Shown here one piece after another: positions 1,586 to 22,910 of a stretch of 55,913 bases of DNA (the stretch's first letter is position 1; each line of letters begins with the position of its first letter). A program made the position numbers and the translations under genes. The stretch covers positions 1 through 55,913 of IMG/VR virus record IMGVR_UViG_2778261121_000001. The stretch is one strand, 5' to 3'. The DNA comes from a virus (Duplodnaviria; Heunggongvirae; Uroviricota; Caudoviricetes). Under the pieces are notes generated by a model. The model searched no databases and was not told where the DNA came from. It saw only the letters and a list, made by a program, of their open reading frames with translations.

Positions 1586-3619
1586 TTACTTAACTTGGTG
1601 GCCTGGTTTAGCACCAGCATCCGGGCTTAACAGGAAGATATCTTTCCCACCGGGGCCAGCAGCCATCACCATACCTTCGGAGATACCGAAGCGCATTTTA
1701 CGCGGAGCCAGGTTAGCCACCATAATGGTGTGACGACCAATCAGTGCCTGTGGGTCTGGATAAGCAGAACGGATGCCTGAGAAGACATTGCGTTTTTCAC
1801 CACCTAGATCCAGCGTCAGACGCAGCAGTTTGTCAGAACCTTCAACAAACTCTGCGTTTTCAATCAGCGCCACGCGCAGGTCAACTTTGGCGAAGTCGTC
1901 AAAGGTGATAGTTTCCTGAATCGGGTCGTCAGCCAGTGGGCCAGTTACCGGTGCGGCTGTGGCTTTCACTTCTTCTTTGGATGCTTCCACCAGTGCTTCA
2001 ACCTGCTTCATATCGATGCGGTTATACAGTGCCTTGAACGGATTCACTTTATGGCCCAGCAACGGTTGCTGGATGCCATCCCAGGTCAGTTCTGTATTCA
2101 GGAATGCTTCTGCACGTTCAGTCAGTTTCGGCAGTACCGGCTTCAGGTACGTCATCAGCACGCGGAACAGGTTAATGCCCATAGAGCAAATCGCCTGCAG
2201 ATCGGCATCGCGTCCTTCCTGCTTCGCCACCACCCACGGAGCCTGTTCATCGACATAGCGGTTAGCCAGGTCAGCCAATGCCATGATTTCACGGATAGCT
2301 TTACCAAATTCACGGCTTTCCCATGCTTCGCCAATCACTTCAGCGGCATCAGTAAAGGTTTTGTACAGTTGCGGGTCAGCCAGTTCGCTTGCCAGCACGC
2401 CGTCAAAACGCTTGTTGATAAAGCCTGCATTACGGGAGGCCAGGTTAACCACTTTGTTCACGATATCGGCATTCACGCGCTGAACGAAATCCTCCAGGTT
2501 GAGATCGATATCATCAATGCGCGAAGAGAGTTTCGCAGTGTAGTAGTAACGCAGGCTGTCAGCGTCAAAATGATTCAGCCAGGTGCTGGCTTTAATAAAG
2601 GTGCCGCGAGACTTGGACATCTTCGCGCCGTTCACCGTCACATAGCCGTGAACAAACAGGTTGGTCGGCTTGCGGAAGTTGCTGCCTTCCAGCATGGCAG
2701 GCCAGAACAGGCTGTGGAAGTAAACAATATCTTTACCGATGAAGTGGTACAGCTCGGCGGTGGAGTCTTTCTTCCAGTATTCATCGAAGCTGGTGGTATC
2801 GCCGCGCTTGTCGCACAGATTCTTGAAGGAACCCATGTAGCCAATCGGCGCGTCCAGCCAGACGTAGAAATATTTGCCCGGCGCGTTCGGAATTTCAAAA
2901 CCGAAGTAAGGCGCATCGCGGGAGATATCCCACTGTTGCAGGCCGGATTCAAACCACTCCTGCATTTTATTTGCCACCTGCTCCTGCAACGCACCGCTGC
3001 GGGTCCATGCCTGCAACATTTCGCTGAAAGAAGGCAGATCAAAGAAGAAGTGTTCGGAATCACGCATTACCGGGGTAGCGCCAGAAACCACCGATTTCGG
3101 CTCGATCAATTCAGTCGGGCTATATGTTGCGCCGCAGACTTCACAGTTATCGCCGTATTGATCTGGCGCTTTACATTTCGGGCAGGTGCCTTTTACAAAA
3201 CGATCCGGCAGGAACATGCCTTTTTCCGGGTCGTACAACTGAGAGATAGTGCGGTTTTTAATAAAACCGTTCTCTTTCAGGCGAGTATAGATAAGCTCAG
3301 ACAACTGACGGTTCTCTTCGCTGTGCGTCGAGTGATAGTTGTCATAGCTGATGTTAAAGCCTGCGAAATCAGTCTGGTGTTCCTGACTCATTTCGCCAAT
3401 CATCTGCTCCGGTGTGATACCAAGCTGCTGTGCTTTCAGCATGATCGGCGTACCGTGGGCATCGTCGGCACAGATGAAATTAACCTCGTGGCCGCGCATT
3501 CGCTGGTAACGAACCCAGACATCAGCCTGGATGTGCTCCAGCATATGGCCGAGGTGGATTGAGCCGTTAGCGTACGGCAGCGCGCACGTCACCAGAATTT
3601 TCTTCGCGACTTGGGTCAT
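1586..3619 (-). CDS. metG: methionine--tRNA ligase
   Basis: Translation from [29 protein letters not shown] to the C-terminus matches E. coli MetG almost residue for residue; start set at the MTQ methionine rather than the longer track ORF. Confidence 0.95.
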
Positions 3620-3776
3620 AGTAGGCATTACTTCTTTGTAGTGAAAAGGGGCTTGATAGTAACAAAATGGCCTTATGTCTGCCATGTGATAACAGCATTT
3701 CTCATAAATGATTAAATGTCGTAGCTGGAGTACACTACAAGGCGACAATTGCGCAAATTAAAATAAAGGAGACGGG

Positions 3777-4877
3777 ATGAGCGAGTCCAAATCGCCGGAT
3801 GCCCTGAGAGCAATGGTAGCCGGTACGCTGGCTAATTTTCAGCACCCAACCCTGAAACACAACCTGACTACGCTTAAAGCGTTACACCATGTTGCGTTGA
3901 TGGATGACACACTGCATGTCGAACTAATCATGCCTTTCGTGTGGAATAAGCCTTTTGAAGACCTGAAAGAGCAATGTAGTGGTGATCTGCTCCGTATCAC
4001 TGGCGCAAAGGCTATTGACTGGAAGCTGTCGTACAACATTGCCACGCTTAAGCGCGTCAAAAACCAACCAGGCATTAATGGCGTTAAGAATATTATCGCC
4101 GTAAGCTCAGGCAAGGGCGGTGTAGGCAAATCGTCCACAGCAGTAAACTTGGCACTGGCGTTGGCTGCTGAAGGTGCGAAAGTTGGTATTTTGGATGCCG
4201 ATATCTACGGGCCATCAATTCCAACCATGCTGGGCGCGGAAAACCAACGTCCAACCTCACCAGACGGTACTCACATGGCACCTATTATGTCTCATGGCCT
4301 GGCAACCAATTCTATTGGTTATCTGGTCACCGACGACAATGCGATGGTGTGGCGTGGACCGATGGCTAGCAAGGCGCTGATGCAGATGTTGCAGGAAACA
4401 CTGTGGCCTGATCTGGACTATCTCGTTCTCGATATGCCGCCGGGCACTGGTGATATTCAATTGACGCTGGCGCAGAACATTCCTGTAACGGGTGCTGTGG
4501 TGGTAACTACGCCGCAAGATATCGCGCTGATCGATGCGAAGAAAGGCATTGTGATGTTCGAAAAAGTCGAAGTGCCGGTACTGGGTATCGTCGAAAACAT
4601 GAGTGTGCATATTTGCAGTAACTGCGGTCATCACGAGCCAATTTTCGGCACCGGTGGCGCAGAGAAACTGGCCGAGAAATACAACACGCAGTTGTTAGGC
4701 CAAATGCCACTTCATATCTCACTTCGTGAAGATCTGGATAACGGAACACCAACCGTTATTAGTCGTCCAGATAGCGAATTTACGGCTATTTATCGTGACC
4801 TCGCAGATCGCGTTGCTGCCCAAATGTATTGGCAAGGTGAAGTAATACCTGGCGAAATCGCATTCCGCGCAGTGTGA
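3777..4877 (+). CDS. apbC: iron-sulfur cluster carrier ATPase ApbC/Mrp
   Basis: Walker A SSGKGGVGKSS plus CxxC near the C-terminus; strong similarity to E. coli Mrp; divergent from metG as in enterobacterial chromosomes. Confidence 0.93.
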   Translation: MSESKSPDALRAMVAGTLANFQHPTLKHNLTTLKALHHVALMDDTLHVELIMPFVWNKPFEDLKEQCSGDLLRITGAKAIDWKLSYNIATLKRVKNQPGINGVKNIIAVSSGKGGVGKSSTAVNLALALAAEGAKVGILDADIYGPSIPTMLGAENQRPTSPDGTHMAPIMSHGLATNSIGYLVTDDNAMVWRGPMASKALMQMLQETLWPDLDYLVLDMPPGTGDIQLTLAQNIPVTGAVVVTTPQDIALIDAKKGIVMFEKVEVPVLGIVENMSVHICSNCGHHEPIFGTGGAEKLAEKYNTQLLGQMPLHISLREDLDNGTPTVISRPDSEFTAIYRDLADRVAAQMYWQGEVIPGEIAFRAV

Positions 4878-7606: not shown

Positions 7607-8133
7607 CGTGCTGACCCCTCTTTGGTTAAAATGCCTGCTGCAATGCTGTTTATGATGCTGTCAGTGCATGGAGTAGAAAGCTGGGCATCTCCAGCAATTT
7701 TCATGACCTCAACATCCGCATATCGAATACCGAGGTGTATCAGACCGGCTATACCTGACTTAAGTCGAACATTTTCCATAAACAGATCTTTTTCCCGCTG
7801 TTTAGCGGCTTCCAACTCCATCGACAATTTTTCCAACTGCTCTTTATGCTTCTTGTATTCCTGATACGCGTGCCAAGACTGACCTTTGCGCACACTATCA
7901 GTGATATCAGCAACCTGCTCTGGTGTTAGCGTGGTCAGTGGCTGTGCTGGAAAAATCATCACTTGCCCGGCATCCCAATCAAAACCAGCCTGAATTGACT
8001 GAACCTCAACTGATGGTGTTGAACCGATGCGACCAGGCGAATGAACAACGATCGTTACATCCATATCTCGACGATGGCTGTGGTTGTTGGACAAAATACG
8101 ATTCACCAACTCAGAAAATTTGGAAAATTTCAT
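7603..8133 (-). CDS. hypothetical protein (176 aa from the MKFSKF start)
   Basis: ATG at 8131-8133 with GAGGG Shine-Dalgarno and ATGA overlap with the upstream stop; the longer track ORF to 8262 would overlap the upstream gene. Confidence 0.45.
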
Positions 8134-8453
8134 GTTGATCCCTCTTTCTCTCCCCGGATAATTCTGTTGCACACATCCACACACTCGTCGCAGATGAAAA
8201 CGGCGTCCCCAGCAATTAACTTTTTGACGGCGTACTGGGATTTGTTGCAGAAGCTGCAACAAAGTGTTCGCCTGACTGATAAGGATGGAGCGCCAGATGT
8301 CAGCCGCTCCATATCGTTCTTGCGACGCAATATCACACGGCTGAACTCAACCAGTTTCTCCGGGGATATCTCCTCCTCCGTAGCGAGCGTCTCTAGTCGT
8401 TCGAGTATGTTGAAGGCTTTTTCCTGGGTAATAGCAGAATGCGATGTGGTCAT
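8130..8453 (-). CDS. small protein with a ClpX-type C4 zinc-binding domain
   Basis: [34 protein letters not shown] closely resembles the ClpX N-terminal zinc-binding domain; start set at the MTTSHS ATG with AAGGAG Shine-Dalgarno. Confidence 0.55.
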
Positions 8454-8454
8454 C

Positions 8455-9177
8455 TCACTCTCCTTTGATGCGAATGCCAGCGGCGCGGGAATCATTCCAT
8501 CGCTTTACTTCTTCACGAATTACGTCAATGCATTCTTTCGAATCCATTAGGTAATCTTCATCAAAAAGACGTTCCTGTTCGTTTTCTATCGCAACAATGA
8601 TTGCTTCAACTAACTTTTGTGCCTGAGAACCACTTTCTAACTCTGCTATGCGCTTACTTCCATCCGCGATTACTCCCTCGTAATATTCACGCTGCTCGTT
8701 GAGTTTTGATTTTGCGGCTTCCAACGCCGCAACCAATTCGTCTACAGTTCCGGCAGCTTGCAGTGCGTAATCGGTAATAGACATCTCATGATCAATTTCA
8801 GTACCGTTCTCATTAGTTGAGGTGATAGCAAAATAATCAGAGTCGATTTCGTTATCAGCTAAGTGGCGTAGCGTATCGGCAACAAGCTGACCGTTTTCGA
8901 TTAACAGCTTCCCTACCGTTAGCGCAATATCCTCGTTCTCCTGGTCGCGAGATTTGATGTATTGCTGGTTTCTTTCCCGTTCATCCAGTAGCGCCAGCAC
9001 GGTTTCTGGTCCGGCCAGAATTTTGAAGGCGTTGAGCGCATCAATATCAACACCGCTATCTTTAAGTTCCTGCTCGCTTATCAGATCATCATCAACTGGC
9101 AACATTAACAGGCGTTCCATTGCCGGAATTGCACGCTCTGCCGCCTCACGCAGTGCCTGATAGTTAATTTTGGTCAT
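8455..9177 (-). CDS. hypothetical acidic protein (240 aa)
   Basis: ORF in track. Confidence 0.5.
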
Positions 9178-9478: not shown

Positions 9479-9981
9479 TGGTTGCCTCCTTCACGTAGCT
9501 CGGCGGCAAAAGCTACTGCGTGATCATGATGTTCAAGTGTGTATGCACACTCCGCAAACATCTCCACGCCCTGCGCACGTACTTCAGCCAGAAAAGCGTC
9601 GGTGGCTGGAGTTTCTATGCACTGCATTTCATGCAATGTCTGCATGTCCATAAAATCCCCGTCAGGCTCTGTGATAGTGGCGTTATATGCCGAGTAAATT
9701 TTTGACGCTTCATGTGCCAGTTCCGCAGCCTTAGATCGCAATGCCACATTCTCCGCCGCTAATGCGTCTCTCTGCGCCCGCAACTTCTCAATTTCGGCAG
9801 CCATGTAGTAACCAACCATAGCGAAAGTGGCGAAAGGGTAGTCAGAATCATCAGGAGATACGGAGGCCATTAGCAGACCATCGTGCATGTTCTGGCTTCC
9901 ATCAGTGATGGATACCGCATAAGAATCGCTGGTTTCCCGTTTATACAATACGACGACCGGGTTCTTGATTTTCTCTCTCAT
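9475..9981 (-). CDS. hypothetical protein (168 aa)
   Basis: ORF in track; overlapping stop/start. Confidence 0.45.
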   Translation of the reverse strand: MREKIKNPVVVLYKRETSDSYAVSITDGSQNMHDGLLMASVSPDDSDYPFATFAMVGYYMAAEIEKLRAQRDALAAENVALRSKAAELAHEASKIYSAYNATITEPDGDFMDMQTLHEMQCIETPATDAFLAEVRAQGVEMFAECAYTLEHHDHAVAFAAELREGGNQ

Positions 9982-10523
9982 TACGATGCCTCTAACTTAT
10001 CTAACTCTTTCAGCCCTTCACGTACCGCGTTCACAATGCGTTCCAGATACTGGTATTTCGGGTTTGGTACCGTTGGCCAGTCGGCATACCACGGATCATC
10101 ACCAAAGAGATTCAGCAGTTTGTTACCGACGCCGAAACAACAGCAGCTTTCTTTTACGTCATCGGCGTTTTCCGCCTCGTCCCACATTTCACGAGCCAGT
10201 ACGGCGTCGATTTCTCTCTCTCTTCGTAACTTTATGATTTCTGACTTCACGAAAAGCAGATTTGCATCGTTGTCATCGTCGACCGTGCTTCGCAGTTGAG
10301 AGTCGAAATAGCCGATTAGATACTCGTTGCTGACCCGCTTAATGAACGTCTGCACATCATCACCGCCCATAGCAAACCAAGCCGCAGTCCACGCTTTTCC
10401 GTAGCAGATGATGGTGATTCTTCCCTTACCAGGTTCGTAGTTTTCAATCATCACTCGAACCGGATCGAGGCGTTCCAGATCCGTCAGCACAAAGGAAAGA
10501 ACATCTATTTTTTCGACCTTCAT
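9981..10523 (-). CDS. hypothetical protein (180 aa from the MKVEK start)
   Basis: ATG at 10521-10523 with GGAGG Shine-Dalgarno and ATGA overlap with the upstream stop. Confidence 0.45.
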   Translation of the reverse strand: MKVEKIDVLSFVLTDLERLDPVRVMIENYEPGKGRITIICYGKAWTAAWFAMGGDDVQTFIKRVSNEYLIGYFDSQLRSTVDDDNDANLLFVKSEIIKLRREREIDAVLAREMWDEAENADDVKESCCCFGVGNKLLNLFGDDPWYADWPTVPNPKYQYLERIVNAVREGLKELDKLEAS

Positions 10524-11161
10524 GCAGCCTCCCACGCGCTCCAGATCAGCGATTTGTGTTTTTCATAACGTTTGATGTGTACCGGTTTCAGAAGCGCAAT
10601 ACCTTCAGTGACTTTCGCCATTGCGCTTAATAGCAACGGGTGTTCTATACCTATCCTCTCCATGTACTCGACAACATCAGCGTTGGCACCAATCTCTTTG
10701 CCGTGAAAGAGTACGTCCAGCATCAGTTCTTTCTCTGCGAGGTAGACAGCTGAAAACTCGGGATCGCGACTCACGATAGAAGAGGTATTGTCGAGCAGGT
10801 CAGCCAGCTTGATCATGCGCGTCTGCATGTCGAGATTTTGCTCCAGCTCCCGGACATTGATGATGAAACGCTGTATTCGATTGCCGTCTTCTGGCCTTGC
10901 AATGTTGGTCAGAGCCTGAACCATTTCAGCTACGCGCTCACCGAAGTGATCACGAACCATCTCTATGGTTACATGGGTGTCTTCGACCACATCATGCAGA
11001 AGCGCCGCGATTTGCATCTCCACGGTTCCGTCATGCAATGCAACAATCTCTCGGACAGCAACCGGGTGGTTGATGTAGTCTTCGCCGGTATATTTTCTTT
11101 TCTGACCAACGCCACCATGAGCGCCAGCGGCGAACATATGAGCTTCGGAAATACTAGACAT
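10520..11161 (-). CDS. HD-domain small alarmone hydrolase (SpoT/Mesh1-like)
   Basis: RelA/SpoT-type HD motifs (HDVVEDT and the N-terminal H...HP region); 213 aa with no synthetase domain. Confidence 0.6.
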   Translation of the reverse strand: MSSISEAHMFAAGAHGGVGQKRKYTGEDYINHPVAVREIVALHDGTVEMQIAALLHDVVEDTHVTIEMVRDHFGERVAEMVQALTNIARPEDGNRIQRFIINVRELEQNLDMQTRMIKLADLLDNTSSIVSRDPEFSAVYLAEKELMLDVLFHGKEIGANADVVEYMERIGIEHPLLLSAMAKVTEGIALLKPVHIKRYEKHKSLIWSAWEAA

Positions 11162-11280
11162 TCTTAACTCCGTTGTTTTCTAGTTGTGGTTATTTTCACA
11201 AATAAGAAAAGGTAGAAAACAATTTATTTAAGGCCACAACTTATGGCCTTTATTTATTCATGCCGAAGGATTTGTAGCGT

Positions 11281-12426: not shown

Positions 12427-14112
12427 TCATTTAACGCGTTTGAAAACGTATACGCTGACTGTGATCCCGGTATCTTCAAACTCGTTGGTAAACGACTTCC
12501 CTTTGGCATAAACGTAATTATCCATCGTCATCCAGCTCAGGATTGGCGCAGTGCCCGGCAATACTGCTACAAGACGACCGCCGAGTTTCAGATGCCCCAG
12601 CGCAGCCAGCGTGTGCTCTCTATGACGACCAAGCGAGTACGGCGGGTTCATAACGATTTTGTCGAACTGATAACCTGCGTTGTCCTCAGACCACTTTATG
12701 AAGTCGCAGCAAATCGTGTTCGTATACCCTTTTCCACGCAGGATATCAGCGAAGAGAGGTGCGATTTCTATGCAGGTAACATCTTCCAGATCGGCGTTAA
12801 TATAGGCCAGAAGATCCCCACGTCCGGCTTGAGGCTCCAACAGCTTCTCACCAGGCTTCAATTCAGTGGCTCTTGCAACGTACTCAGCAATCAAGCGTGG
12901 GGTAGGGTAGAACTGGTGTGATTTTGTATCCGGTATTAAACCGGTAGCCACAATCGTATTTAGCGTATGGCCGATGTCATACGGGAACTGCCAGTGCTTT
13001 TTCTCCTGCACGCCGCCAATGAAGCTCAGTGTGCGCTCAAGCTCTTCCACCTGCGACTTCTGGAGAGCTGAATCAGAGAAGTACCATACGCCTTTGTCTT
13101 TGCTCAATCGCCCGTCACGAAGCGCAGTGCGAACCGGCACGGAGATCGTCTTCTGGATTAACCCGAACTGCTTTGGTGCCCGTGTTTTTGGCGCAGTTCG
13201 GCATGGCGCGGGAATTGCAGCAGGCATACTGTAAGCCAGCACCTCATTCAACTTCCAGGCCACGTCAGGATGTATTTCAAAGTGAACGTTGCCGTTCTTG
13301 AACATCTTCACGCGCATCAGATTTCCATCGACGTTCATCCAGTCACCGGTCTGGCAGTCGTTTGCCCGATACGCAGCTGATAGCACCTCAGCAGTGCGGT
13401 TGATGGTAATAAATTCTTTGTGCGCGAAGAAATGAAGCAAGACACGCAGATCGTCGATGTAGTCCTCTTTGCGATAGTTCACGCTAACGCTGTCCCGCCA
13501 GAAATCAGAAATGCAGTCAGCGATTATCAGACGCTCGCTGAAACCGTTTGTCTTATTTGTCTTGTGCGCAGGACTCAGCGCCTTAAACAAGCCATACACG
13601 CGCTCAGAGAGATATTTGTGCCTGTCATTCAGCAAATTAAGCATCGTGGGTATGACCGTTTCTGCTTTGAACTCCGGTACACCAACGAACTCTTTAACCT
13701 TCATCTGGTAGCCGGTTCTGTCAGTTTTGATGACTTCCTGTTTGCCCTCTATAAACTGCTCGCGCCACTCATCTCGACGGGAAGCTGGCATGATCAGCAA
13801 AACGTTAGTCATGTCCGTGACCTTCCTCCAGTACTCGGCCCAAATATTCTGTTTCACCCATTCCAGATCGACTTTATCCAACCAACCTCGATTTAAACGC
13901 GAGCGATCTTCATCTGGTCGATGGTTTAGTCTCAGCAGGCGATTAATCATGTTGTGGCGTTCGTCGCCATAAACGAAGTCGTGAACCTGATACATGAAGG
14001 CGATCTCTTTCTCGCACTCGGCCACAATTTCGTGGATGACGTTCATTTCCTGCCGATAGTCGATAGCAGTGTTTGAGTTGGCATCGTCGATGATGGAAAG
14101 GGCTGTATTCAT
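12427..14112 (-). CDS. DNA amino-methyltransferase (C-terminal NPPY domain) fused to a ~380-aa N-terminal domain of unknown function
   Basis: C-terminal FYPTP, LEPQAGRGDL (motif I) and NPPY (motif IV); N-terminal domain has no recognisable motif. Confidence 0.7.
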   Translation of the reverse strand: MNTALSIIDDANSNTAIDYRQEMNVIHEIVAECEKEIAFMYQVHDFVYGDERHNMINRLLRLNHRPDEDRSRLNRGWLDKVDLEWVKQNIWAEYWRKVTDMTNVLLIMPASRRDEWREQFIEGKQEVIKTDRTGYQMKVKEFVGVPEFKAETVIPTMLNLLNDRHKYLSERVYGLFKALSPAHKTNKTNGFSERLIIADCISDFWRDSVSVNYRKEDYIDDLRVLLHFFAHKEFITINRTAEVLSAAYRANDCQTGDWMNVDGNLMRVKMFKNGNVHFEIHPDVAWKLNEVLAYSMPAAIPAPCRTAPKTRAPKQFGLIQKTISVPVRTALRDGRLSKDKGVWYFSDSALQKSQVEELERTLSFIGGVQEKKHWQFPYDIGHTLNTIVATGLIPDTKSHQFYPTPRLIAEYVARATELKPGEKLLEPQAGRGDLLAYINADLEDVTCIEIAPLFADILRGKGYTNTICCDFIKWSEDNAGYQFDKIVMNPPYSLGRHREHTLAALGHLKLGGRLVAVLPGTAPILSWMTMDNYVYAKGKSFTNEFEDTGITVSVYVFKRVK

Positions 14113-21789: not shown

Positions 21790-22434
21790 CTAATGAACGG
21801 TTACTCGGCCACAGAACCGGTTTTCTATCTTTTCTACCGCGTTATCGAGCATTCTCATTACTGATCTGGCTCTTGCTTCAACTGTGCGATACCGGTTGGA
21901 AACGACGAAGGTTTGCAGATCTCCCCTTTGCGGATGCAGGTGAATTTTTGTCAGTTCCCCGCACATCAACGCATCAATACGAGCGACATACAGACGGTCT
22001 AATGATGCTCGTTGTGACCGCAAGTAATCTCGCTCTGAGAGAGCGACCCCTGGGCGTAGGCCAGCAATGGCGTTAAAGTTTGAAATAGCAGTTTTGTGGC
22101 AAAACTTTTCGATATCGAGGGCTAACTCAATACATCGATCTTCATTGGTATGGCCGACCAAATCCAACGTGTAGGCCATAACATCAGCAGGTGTGCGATC
22201 GATAACAAAGCCTTCAACACCACGCGTAAGTAGCTCTATATGCTTTGCTATTTCCATTTGAATCTGAAGCCGCTCATATAGAGGCATAGACTCACCTACT
22301 CGAACACCGAGTCGGCTCATCAAACTTCCGACACCAGCATCCACGTAAGGGATTCCGTAATGTTTGTCGATATATTTTGCCAGGGTTGTTTTCCCACTGC
22401 CCTGAGCACCAGTGATCCCAATCCGGTAATCCAT
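21790..22434 (-). CDS. P-loop NTPase, probable nucleotide kinase
   Basis: Walker A GAQGSGKTT at the N-terminus; sits in the nucleotide-metabolism cluster. Confidence 0.55.
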   Translation of the reverse strand: MDYRIGITGAQGSGKTTLAKYIDKHYGIPYVDAGVGSLMSRLGVRVGESMPLYERLQIQMEIAKHIELLTRGVEGFVIDRTPADVMAYTLDLVGHTNEDRCIELALDIEKFCHKTAISNFNAIAGLRPGVALSERDYLRSQRASLDRLYVARIDALMCGELTKIHLHPQRGDLQTFVVSNRYRTVEARARSVMRMLDNAVEKIENRFCGRVTVH

Positions 22435-22910
22435 TACGACCTTCTGTATACGATCTGCGAAAAGCCAGGCTCTTCCTCGCTGGCTCGTTGGGTAAAAACT
22501 GTTTCAACAGGCACAAAGCCTAAATTACGCATCATGCTTGCCGGGAAGAATGCATCGGCGTTTGGCACATCAACGCCGATGTGGGAGAGCCAAATCTCTT
22601 CAACATGCGGCATGAATAGCGAGTAAATTTGTTCCCCGCCAATAACCCACACAGGCTCTGGTAATCGCAACACATCATCCACACCAGCAGGGTAGAATCC
22701 ATTTGGTACAAAGCCATGAGAGCGCGTCAAAACGAGGTTATGACGCTCTGGAAGAGGGCGTTTGAGACTTTCCATCGTTTTACGCCCCATAACGACAGTG
22801 GCGTTTTTGGTGAGTCTCTTAAATAGCTTCAGATCGGTAGAACAACGCCAGGGGAGTTCATTCGCTATGCCGATCTCATAGTTACGGCCAACAGCAGCGA
22901 TCATCTTCAT
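22434..22910 (-). CDS. dihydrofolate reductase
   Basis: Aligns with FolA across its length (IG..N.LPW, VMGR.T.ES, VIGG..IY). Confidence 0.8.
   Translation of the reverse strand: MKMIAAVGRNYEIGIANELPWRCSTDLKLFKRLTKNATVVMGRKTMESLKRPLPERHNLVLTRSHGFVPNGFYPAGVDDVLRLPEPVWVIGGEQIYSLFMPHVEEIWLSHIGVDVPNADAFFPASMMRNLGFVPVETVFTQRASEEEPGFSQIVYRRS

Follow-up and report, generated by a model that had tools for sequence, protein, structure and literature searches.

Among the genes carried by the 55,913-nucleotide (nt) stretch of caudoviricete DNA considered here (positions 1 to 55,913 of IMG/VR record IMGVR_UViG_2778261121_000001; hereafter, the window) is one whose product is most probably a functional small alarmone hydrolase (SAH) of the PaSpo subfamily. 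The window belongs to an SSU5-like Escherichia coli phage-plasmid of ~110 kb, in which the gene is accessory. The enzyme would undo the products of toxic small alarmone synthetases (toxSAS), with counter-defense as its likely role, and the probability of this reading is put at about 0.8. The case is already known: a close ortholog, PaSpo of Salmonella phage SSU5, has been published and put to experimental use, and the window gene is the E. coli allele.

An earlier, sequence-only reading of this DNA had described a stand-alone 213-aa protein with an HD domain, SpoT/Mesh1-type motifs and no synthetase domain, and each part of that description holds. The open reading frame (ORF) is found exactly at 10520..11161 on the minus strand. 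Its product matches Pfam HD_4 (E 1.2e-18; 67.8 bits, the cutoff being 27.2) and HD (E 6e-6), and only these two models exceed their Pfam cutoffs. The RelA/SpoT models that the reading had proposed as a check were also run, and they match along with HD_4, but over the first ~150 positions only of these long RelA/SpoT homolog (RSH) models: the match to TIGR00691 spoT_relA (E 1.4e-24) is confined to model positions 1-123 of 687, and that to the SpoT equivalog NF008303 covers positions 23-152 of 702. Scans with the Pfam and TIGR/NCBIfam models gave no match to the RelA_SpoT synthetase, TGS or ACT domains in the protein, which is therefore hydrolase-only. In PHROGs it falls into phrog_990, "metal-dependent phosphohydrolase" (E 2.9e-55). 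Matches of this strength lie well outside what chance would give. The best matches among PDB sequences are SpoT, Rel, human MESH1, Lmo0812 and bacterial small alarmone hydrolases, with E values of 1e-13 to 1e-11 for SpoT, Rel and MESH1. By its HD_4 and TIGR00691 matches and its PDB homology, the protein classifies as a member of the RSH superfamily, with a predicted hydrolase (HD) domain. A PADLOC scan of the protein gave no match, as expected of a non-defense gene. Assignment to the Aph1-type (p)ppApp-specific HD hydrolases was considered and rejected: Aph1 (7smg) matches at E 2e-6, whereas SpoT, Rel and MESH1 reach 1.7e-13 to 1.7e-12, and its TMq in Foldseek is 0.44, against 0.6-0.69 for RSH hydrolase domains.

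In the HMMER alignment, residues R22, Y29, H32, H56-D57, E60-D61, D121 and N125 of the SAH protein fall on R24, Y32, H35, H61-D62, E65-D66, D122 and N126 of human MESH1 (3nr1), which we take to be the metal-binding and catalytic set, as in the MESH1 and RelSeq structures. An HD motif out of register with the SpoT catalytic positions had been named at the outset as the observation that would tell against a hydrolase; this was checked, and the residues align. Across an alignment of 66 homologs, reaching down to 43% identity, R22, Y29, H32, H56, E60, D61, D121 and N125 are invariant, and D57 is conserved in at least 90%. From the same alignment, AlphaFold2 predicts one compact 12-helix domain (mean pLDDT 96.9, pTM 0.92). 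When this model is compared with the PDB by Foldseek, the top 50 matches consist entirely of RSH hydrolase domains and related alarmone hydrolases, at a probability of 1.00, and include MESH1, the Pseudomonas aeruginosa SAH, Corynebacterium glutamicum RelH, the Leptospira SAH, Aph1 and the N-terminal domains of Rel and SpoT. The extra length of the protein over MESH1 is made up of C-terminal helices, which still align with RelH (TMq 0.69, rmsd 3.1 Å, 203 columns). The model, in short, predicts the all-alpha SAH/MESH1 fold.

The ortholog in SSU5 is SSU5_099 (gp099, AFL47026.1), the only RSH-like place in that genome. It is likewise 213 aa long and is 87.3% identical to the SAH protein over 100% of both lengths, without gaps. 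Gene order is common to the window and SSU5 as well, running from a DUF4942 methylase through an Ead/Ea22-like gene, an Eaa-like gene and the SAH gene to a 180-aa PF26211 gene. The 27 substitutions between the two proteins leave the catalytic positions untouched: 8 are in residues 1-135, the catalytic core, which is 94% identical, and 19 in residues 136-213. Measured against the SSU5 ortholog by the Nei-Gojobori method, dN/dS comes to 0.19 for the whole gene, with 0.10 for the core and 0.30 for the C-terminal part; the SAH gene is therefore under purifying selection. Orthology and synteny with the SSU5 SAH place the protein, as far as sequence can tell, in the PaSpo subfamily of the Atkinson/Jimmy classification.

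It was this SSU5 protein that Jimmy et al. 2020 (PMC7229694) studied as the "PaSpo" SAH. In their work, the stand-alone, phage-encoded enzyme neutralized CapRel, PhRel2, FaRel2, PhRel and FaRel upon co-expression in E. coli (Table 1 of that paper). The claim that hydrolases of this type can counteract toxic alarmone synthetases, made from the sequence of the window, had thus already been demonstrated against five toxSAS for an 87%-identical, syntenic protein. Removal of the tRNA 3' pyrophosphate that FaRel2 installs has been reported for PaSpo as well (PMC11559606), and the enzyme has become a routine aid for expressing toxSAS proteins, CapRel-SJ46 included (PMC9712102; bioRxiv 2021.04.30.441581). 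With either of two other SAHs, MESH1 and ATfaRel, pyrophosphorylated tRNA could be aminoacylated again in vitro (bioRxiv 2021.04.30.441581). By analogy with its ortholog, the window SAH would be expected to neutralize toxSAS too. The two proteins are alike in length, in all active-site residues, in gene order (down to an ATGA overlap with the gene downstream) and in being carried by SSU5-like phage-plasmids. They differ in host, Salmonella for SSU5 and E. coli for the window element, and by the 27 substitutions, and it is for the SSU5 allele that toxSAS rescue has been shown.

Other known hydrolases resemble the window SAH to varying degrees. Human and Drosophila MESH1 (PDB 3nr1, 3nqw, 5vxa) share the single-domain, all-helical RSH hydrolase fold (TM 0.63-0.78, depending on normalization) and the same aligned residue set. 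However, they are only 26-28% identical, lack about 35 residues that the window SAH has at its C-terminus, and work in a metazoan rather than a phage-plasmid context. The orphan bacterial SAHs of P. aeruginosa (6yvc), C. glutamicum (RelH, 7qod) and Leptospira (7qoe) have the same fold over nearly the whole length, but at 21-24% identity, and they are encoded on the chromosome, where they serve housekeeping or self-resistance. In the FaRel module of Cellulomonas marina, the SAH antitoxin, ATfaRel, is like PaSpo in its promiscuous neutralization of all tested toxSAS via product degradation; it sits in an operon with its toxSAS, whereas the window SAH is an orphan. PbcSpo of Salmonella phage PVP-SE1 is another stand-alone phage SAH that neutralized all five toxSAS (PMC7229694), but its authors placed it in another RSH subfamily, and the likeness drawn here is by description only.

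The DNA around the SAH gene is 100% identical to non-mobilizable E. coli plasmids of ~110 kb, and the relatives of the element include Salmonella phage SSU5, Escherichia phages Cyrano, CMS-2020a and PhiR41_1, and Klebsiella phage pJN2-26. In one related plasmid, NZ_CP184119.1, the SAH gene is 99.8% identical, and the annotation lists RepB, ParB and a complete siphovirus structural module, together with nrdAB, thymidylate synthase, dihydrofolate reductase (DHFR), dnaE, metG and tRNAs. Many public plasmid records hold identical SAH copies under the name "HD domain-containing protein", and dozens of plasmids maintain copies at 99-100% identity. Of 5,426 complete E. coli genomes, 36 have the SAH gene, exclusively on plasmids. 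The flanking DUF4942 methylase gene, which serves as a rough marker of SSU5-like elements, is found in 187 of the same genomes; the SAH gene is therefore accessory, occurring in roughly one fifth of the marker-positive genomes.

How would such an enzyme act, and what would it do for the element? Residues H32, H56, D57 and D121 would bind Mn2+ at the HD site, and the E60-D61 pair would, together with R22/N125, position the substrate and activate water. The 3'-pyrophosphate would then be removed from (p)ppGpp, from (p)ppApp and from tRNA with a pyrophosphorylated CCA end. Such a Mn2+-dependent 3'-pyrophosphohydrolase activity is suggested by analogy with the ortholog, which neutralizes FaRel, a (pp)pApp producer, in vivo. 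Since the product is destroyed and no toxin is bound, the SAH would be indifferent to the identity of the toxSAS, and the product of any of them would be undone, whichever had made it. A lowering of host (p)ppGpp would be a probable side effect. Most likely, the enzyme would allow the element to establish itself, replicate or go lytic in enterobacterial hosts with toxSAS-bearing prophages (e.g., those encoding CapRel). Toxin-based defenses of this kind exist in the relevant hosts, since CapRel-SJ46 is the toxSAS of a Salmonella temperate phage and is found at 100% identity in E. coli prophages. Jimmy et al. 2020 proposed that alarmone hydrolases let incoming phages bypass alarmone-based defense, and counter-defense is presumably the natural role of the SAH considered here.

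Several points weigh against this reading. A literature search, of incomplete coverage, found no infection-context test of a phage SAH as counter-defense; in the literature located, the protection afforded by PaSpo was seen upon plasmid co-expression with toxins, rather than in phage infection or lysogeny. For the window allele itself, activity is inferred from the ortholog. A promoter scan called no minus-strand sigma-70 consensus promoter upstream of the SAH gene. Finally, of the E. coli genomes that have the DUF4942 marker, about four fifths have no SAH gene (36 vs 187), and the gene has been repeatedly deleted or fused in relatives. It is therefore dispensable, and any benefit that it provides is conditional.

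Might the enzyme instead be aimed at the stringent response of the host? It would then degrade (p)ppGpp made by RelA/SpoT, and thereby keep replication, nucleotide synthesis and translation going in cells that are starved or infected. Such damping is equally compatible with the enzymology and not mutually exclusive with counter-defense. The same enzymatic activity would achieve the degradation of host (p)ppGpp, the closest PDB sequence relatives are the hydrolase domains of SpoT and Rel, and the element is rich in genes for nucleotide and translation supply (nrdAB, thymidylate synthase, DHFR, metG and, in relatives, tRNAs). Moreover, ppGpp inhibits lambda-type replication and primase. Phage infection has also been linked to alarmone accumulation, as noted by Jimmy et al. 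2020. On the other hand, most E. coli SSU5-like elements have no SAH and evidently replicate regardless, and E. coli SpoT already supplies hydrolase activity. As the main role, manipulation of the stringent response is thus a possibility of distinctly lower standing, and so is the corresponding gain, which would lie in plasmid-state maintenance or lytic growth.

It is improbable that the physiological substrate is, as has been reported for metazoan MESH1, another 3'- or 2'-phosphorylated nucleotide such as NADPH or 3'-phosphoadenosine-5'-phosphosulfate (PAPS). The top structural matches include MESH1, with its NADPH- and PAPS-bound structures, and NADPH phosphatase activity has been reported for it; in addition, metabolic promiscuity is reported for an orphan bacterial SAH (PMC9765508). 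However, identity to MESH1 is low, as described above, and the ortholog neutralizes both (pp)pApp-producing and tRNA-pyrophosphorylating toxSAS in vivo, a demonstration of pyrophosphohydrolase activity on those products.

The SAH gene is closely linked to its neighbor. The ATG of the downstream PF26211 gene overlaps its stop codon in a 4-nt ATGA, and the same overlap is found in SSU5 and pJN2-26. Together, the two genes make up an accessory cassette (Table 1). Escherichia phage Cyrano has 44 nt in place of this ~1.2-kb cassette, in a flank that is otherwise 98.8% identical, and the cassette is present in SSU5. Its GC content (0.49 vs 0.46 for the window) is like that of the neighboring genes, so it bears no clear foreign signature. 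The SAH and PF26211 genes are co-inherited in E. coli, Salmonella and some Klebsiella SSU5-like elements. It is tempting to see in the translationally coupled pair a two-gene anti-defense cassette that is traded as one unit between enterobacterial phage-plasmids, one partner, for example, blocking or sensing a defense and the SAH removing the toxic product; or else the SAH might be expressed in the plasmid (lysogenic) state, reprogramming the stringent response of the host and making carriers physiologically different from non-carriers. Such proposals are speculative, and rather unlikely to be correct.

Table 1. Features of the SAH locus in the window
Feature	Position	Strand	Description
SAH gene, PaSpo type	10520..11161	minus	213 aa, ATG start, intact ORF
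SAH gene product			single all-helical RSH hydrolase (HD) domain; active-site residues R22, Y29, H32, H56, D57, E60, D61, D121, N125
Shine-Dalgarno GGAG	11168..11171	minus	6 nt upstream of the SAH ATG, read from the sequence
Hairpin AAGGCCA-N7-TGGCCTT	11230..11250	unassigned	7-bp, GC-containing; in the 119-nt intergenic region from the Eaa-like gene to the SAH gene
PF26211 gene	9981..10523	minus	180 aa, downstream; phrog_3451, "phiTE_072 family" in some RefSeq records
Accessory cassette (SAH + PF26211 genes)	9982..11186	minus	~1.2 kb, two genes; from blastn of the window vs SSU5 and Cyrano

The PF26211 gene was also considered as an obligate companion of the SAH, an idea that was rejected: the gene commonly occurs alone, the family being widespread in prophages and Certrevirus-like lytic phages without any SAH. 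Conversely, there are Klebsiella SSU5-like elements that have a 52%-identical SAH on the other side of the DUF4942 gene from the E. coli/Salmonella position, without a PF26211 partner. In the Klebsiella contigs L007-L009 this SAH lies at 4001-4639, upstream of the DUF4942 gene and behind two tiny ORFs. To judge from this arrangement, the SAH of these elements evidently took its place in the shared accessory region independently or through rearrangement.

These observations also bear on the idea that the element has a toxSAS module of its own, in which the SAH would be the type IV antitoxin, as ATfaRel is for FaRel, and the PF26211 gene the toxin. The ATGA overlap is typical of coupled two-gene modules and is conserved in SSU5 and pJN2-26, and both genes of the cassette have been gained or lost together relative to Cyrano. 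However, the PF26211 protein has no synthetase match in Pfam, NCBIfam or PADLOC, and neither the family nor the Klebsiella SAH requires the other. No toxSAS gene stands in the SAH operon, as it would in a module of the FaRel/ATfaRel type, and no RelA/SpoT synthetase is found on the whole element by the PGAP names in the RefSeq annotation of the related plasmid NZ_CP184119.1. With a toxSAS neither beside it nor annotated on the related element, the SAH is therefore an orphan enzyme, and the antitoxin idea, which is very improbable, is already largely refuted.

Upstream of the SAH gene, the hairpin in the intergenic region may be a terminator or a boundary element; in a pattern scan it scored as a terminator on the plus strand only. 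The adjoining 61 nt (window 11173-11233, up to the first bases of the hairpin) recur at 84% identity at a second intergenic position in SSU5, between SSU5_103 and SSU5_104 (L001 7646-7706), with no further copy in the window, and may represent a repeated regulatory or mosaic-boundary element.

Derivatives of the SAH are found in the plasmids of other Enterobacteriaceae. In one database protein (P0010), a Walker-A ATPase N-terminus replaces SAH residues 1 to about 57, with loss of H32 and the H56-D57 pair; in three others (P0012-P0014), an Ead/Ea22-like N-terminus is joined near SAH residue 76; and in P0011, the SAH ends at residue 139. In plasmid pAMPD1 (NZ_CP058356.1; L011 2371-2543), the gene is reduced to its first 43 nt (equivalent to window 11119-11161), beside an IS1 transposase fragment and apbC; what corresponds to window ~4.9-11.1 kb seems to have been lost through an IS1-associated deletion. 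Comparison of these sequences indicates that the SAH accessory region is recombination-prone and that the hydrolase is sometimes destroyed. That the window gene is itself a decaying, non-functional passenger, as the shortened and chimeric derivatives (P0010, P0011, P0012) and the deletion with its IS1 remnant might suggest, is the least credible of the explanations considered, given an intact ORF with all catalytic residues and a Shine-Dalgarno sequence, the low dN/dS (0.19 overall, 0.10 in the core) and the 99-100%-identical copies kept in dozens of plasmids.

Other genes of the element deserve mention in their own right. A full-length methionine-tRNA ligase gene, metG, and apbC are assigned by the annotation of the relative to window 1586-3748 (minus) and 3777-4877 (plus), respectively. 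A gene of the translation apparatus is carried on the same element as an enzyme proposed to repair pyrophosphorylated tRNA. Relatives of the window element carry tRNA-Ser, Thr, Tyr and Asn; a tRNA scan of the window found none. The DUF4942 gene (12427-14112, minus) encodes 561 aa, in which a DUF4942 domain at the N-terminus is followed at the C-terminus by a methyltransferase region that has PADLOC matches to mad2 and type II methyltransferases (E 4e-15 to 2e-10); its product is probably an orphan DNA methylase that shields the element from restriction. Among the Ead/Ea22-like accessory genes, one (8130-8495, minus) encodes a protein of 121 aa that has a ClpX-type C4 zinc finger (E 1.6e-15) at its C-terminus and lacks an ATPase domain; the protein may bind or mimic a ClpX adaptor or substrate. 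In NZ_CP184119.1, positions 98134-98610 are annotated as a trimethoprim-resistant DHFR (DfrA51), inside a nucleotide-metabolism block (thyA, nrdAB); an ORF of the same length lies at the corresponding place in the window (~22434-22910, minus), matched by position and length alone.

What does the presence of this gene mean for phage-plasmids and their hosts? The window locus adds no new kind of part, being an E. coli allele of the already tested SSU5 PaSpo. Phage-borne alarmone hydrolases could plausibly act as general antidotes to abortive infection by toxSAS, CapRel among them, since they erase the product of the toxin and bind no particular toxin. Near-identical SSU5-like phage-plasmids with and without the SAH gene occur naturally, and thus offer a convenient system in which to study the protection that an SAH may provide in infection or lysogeny.
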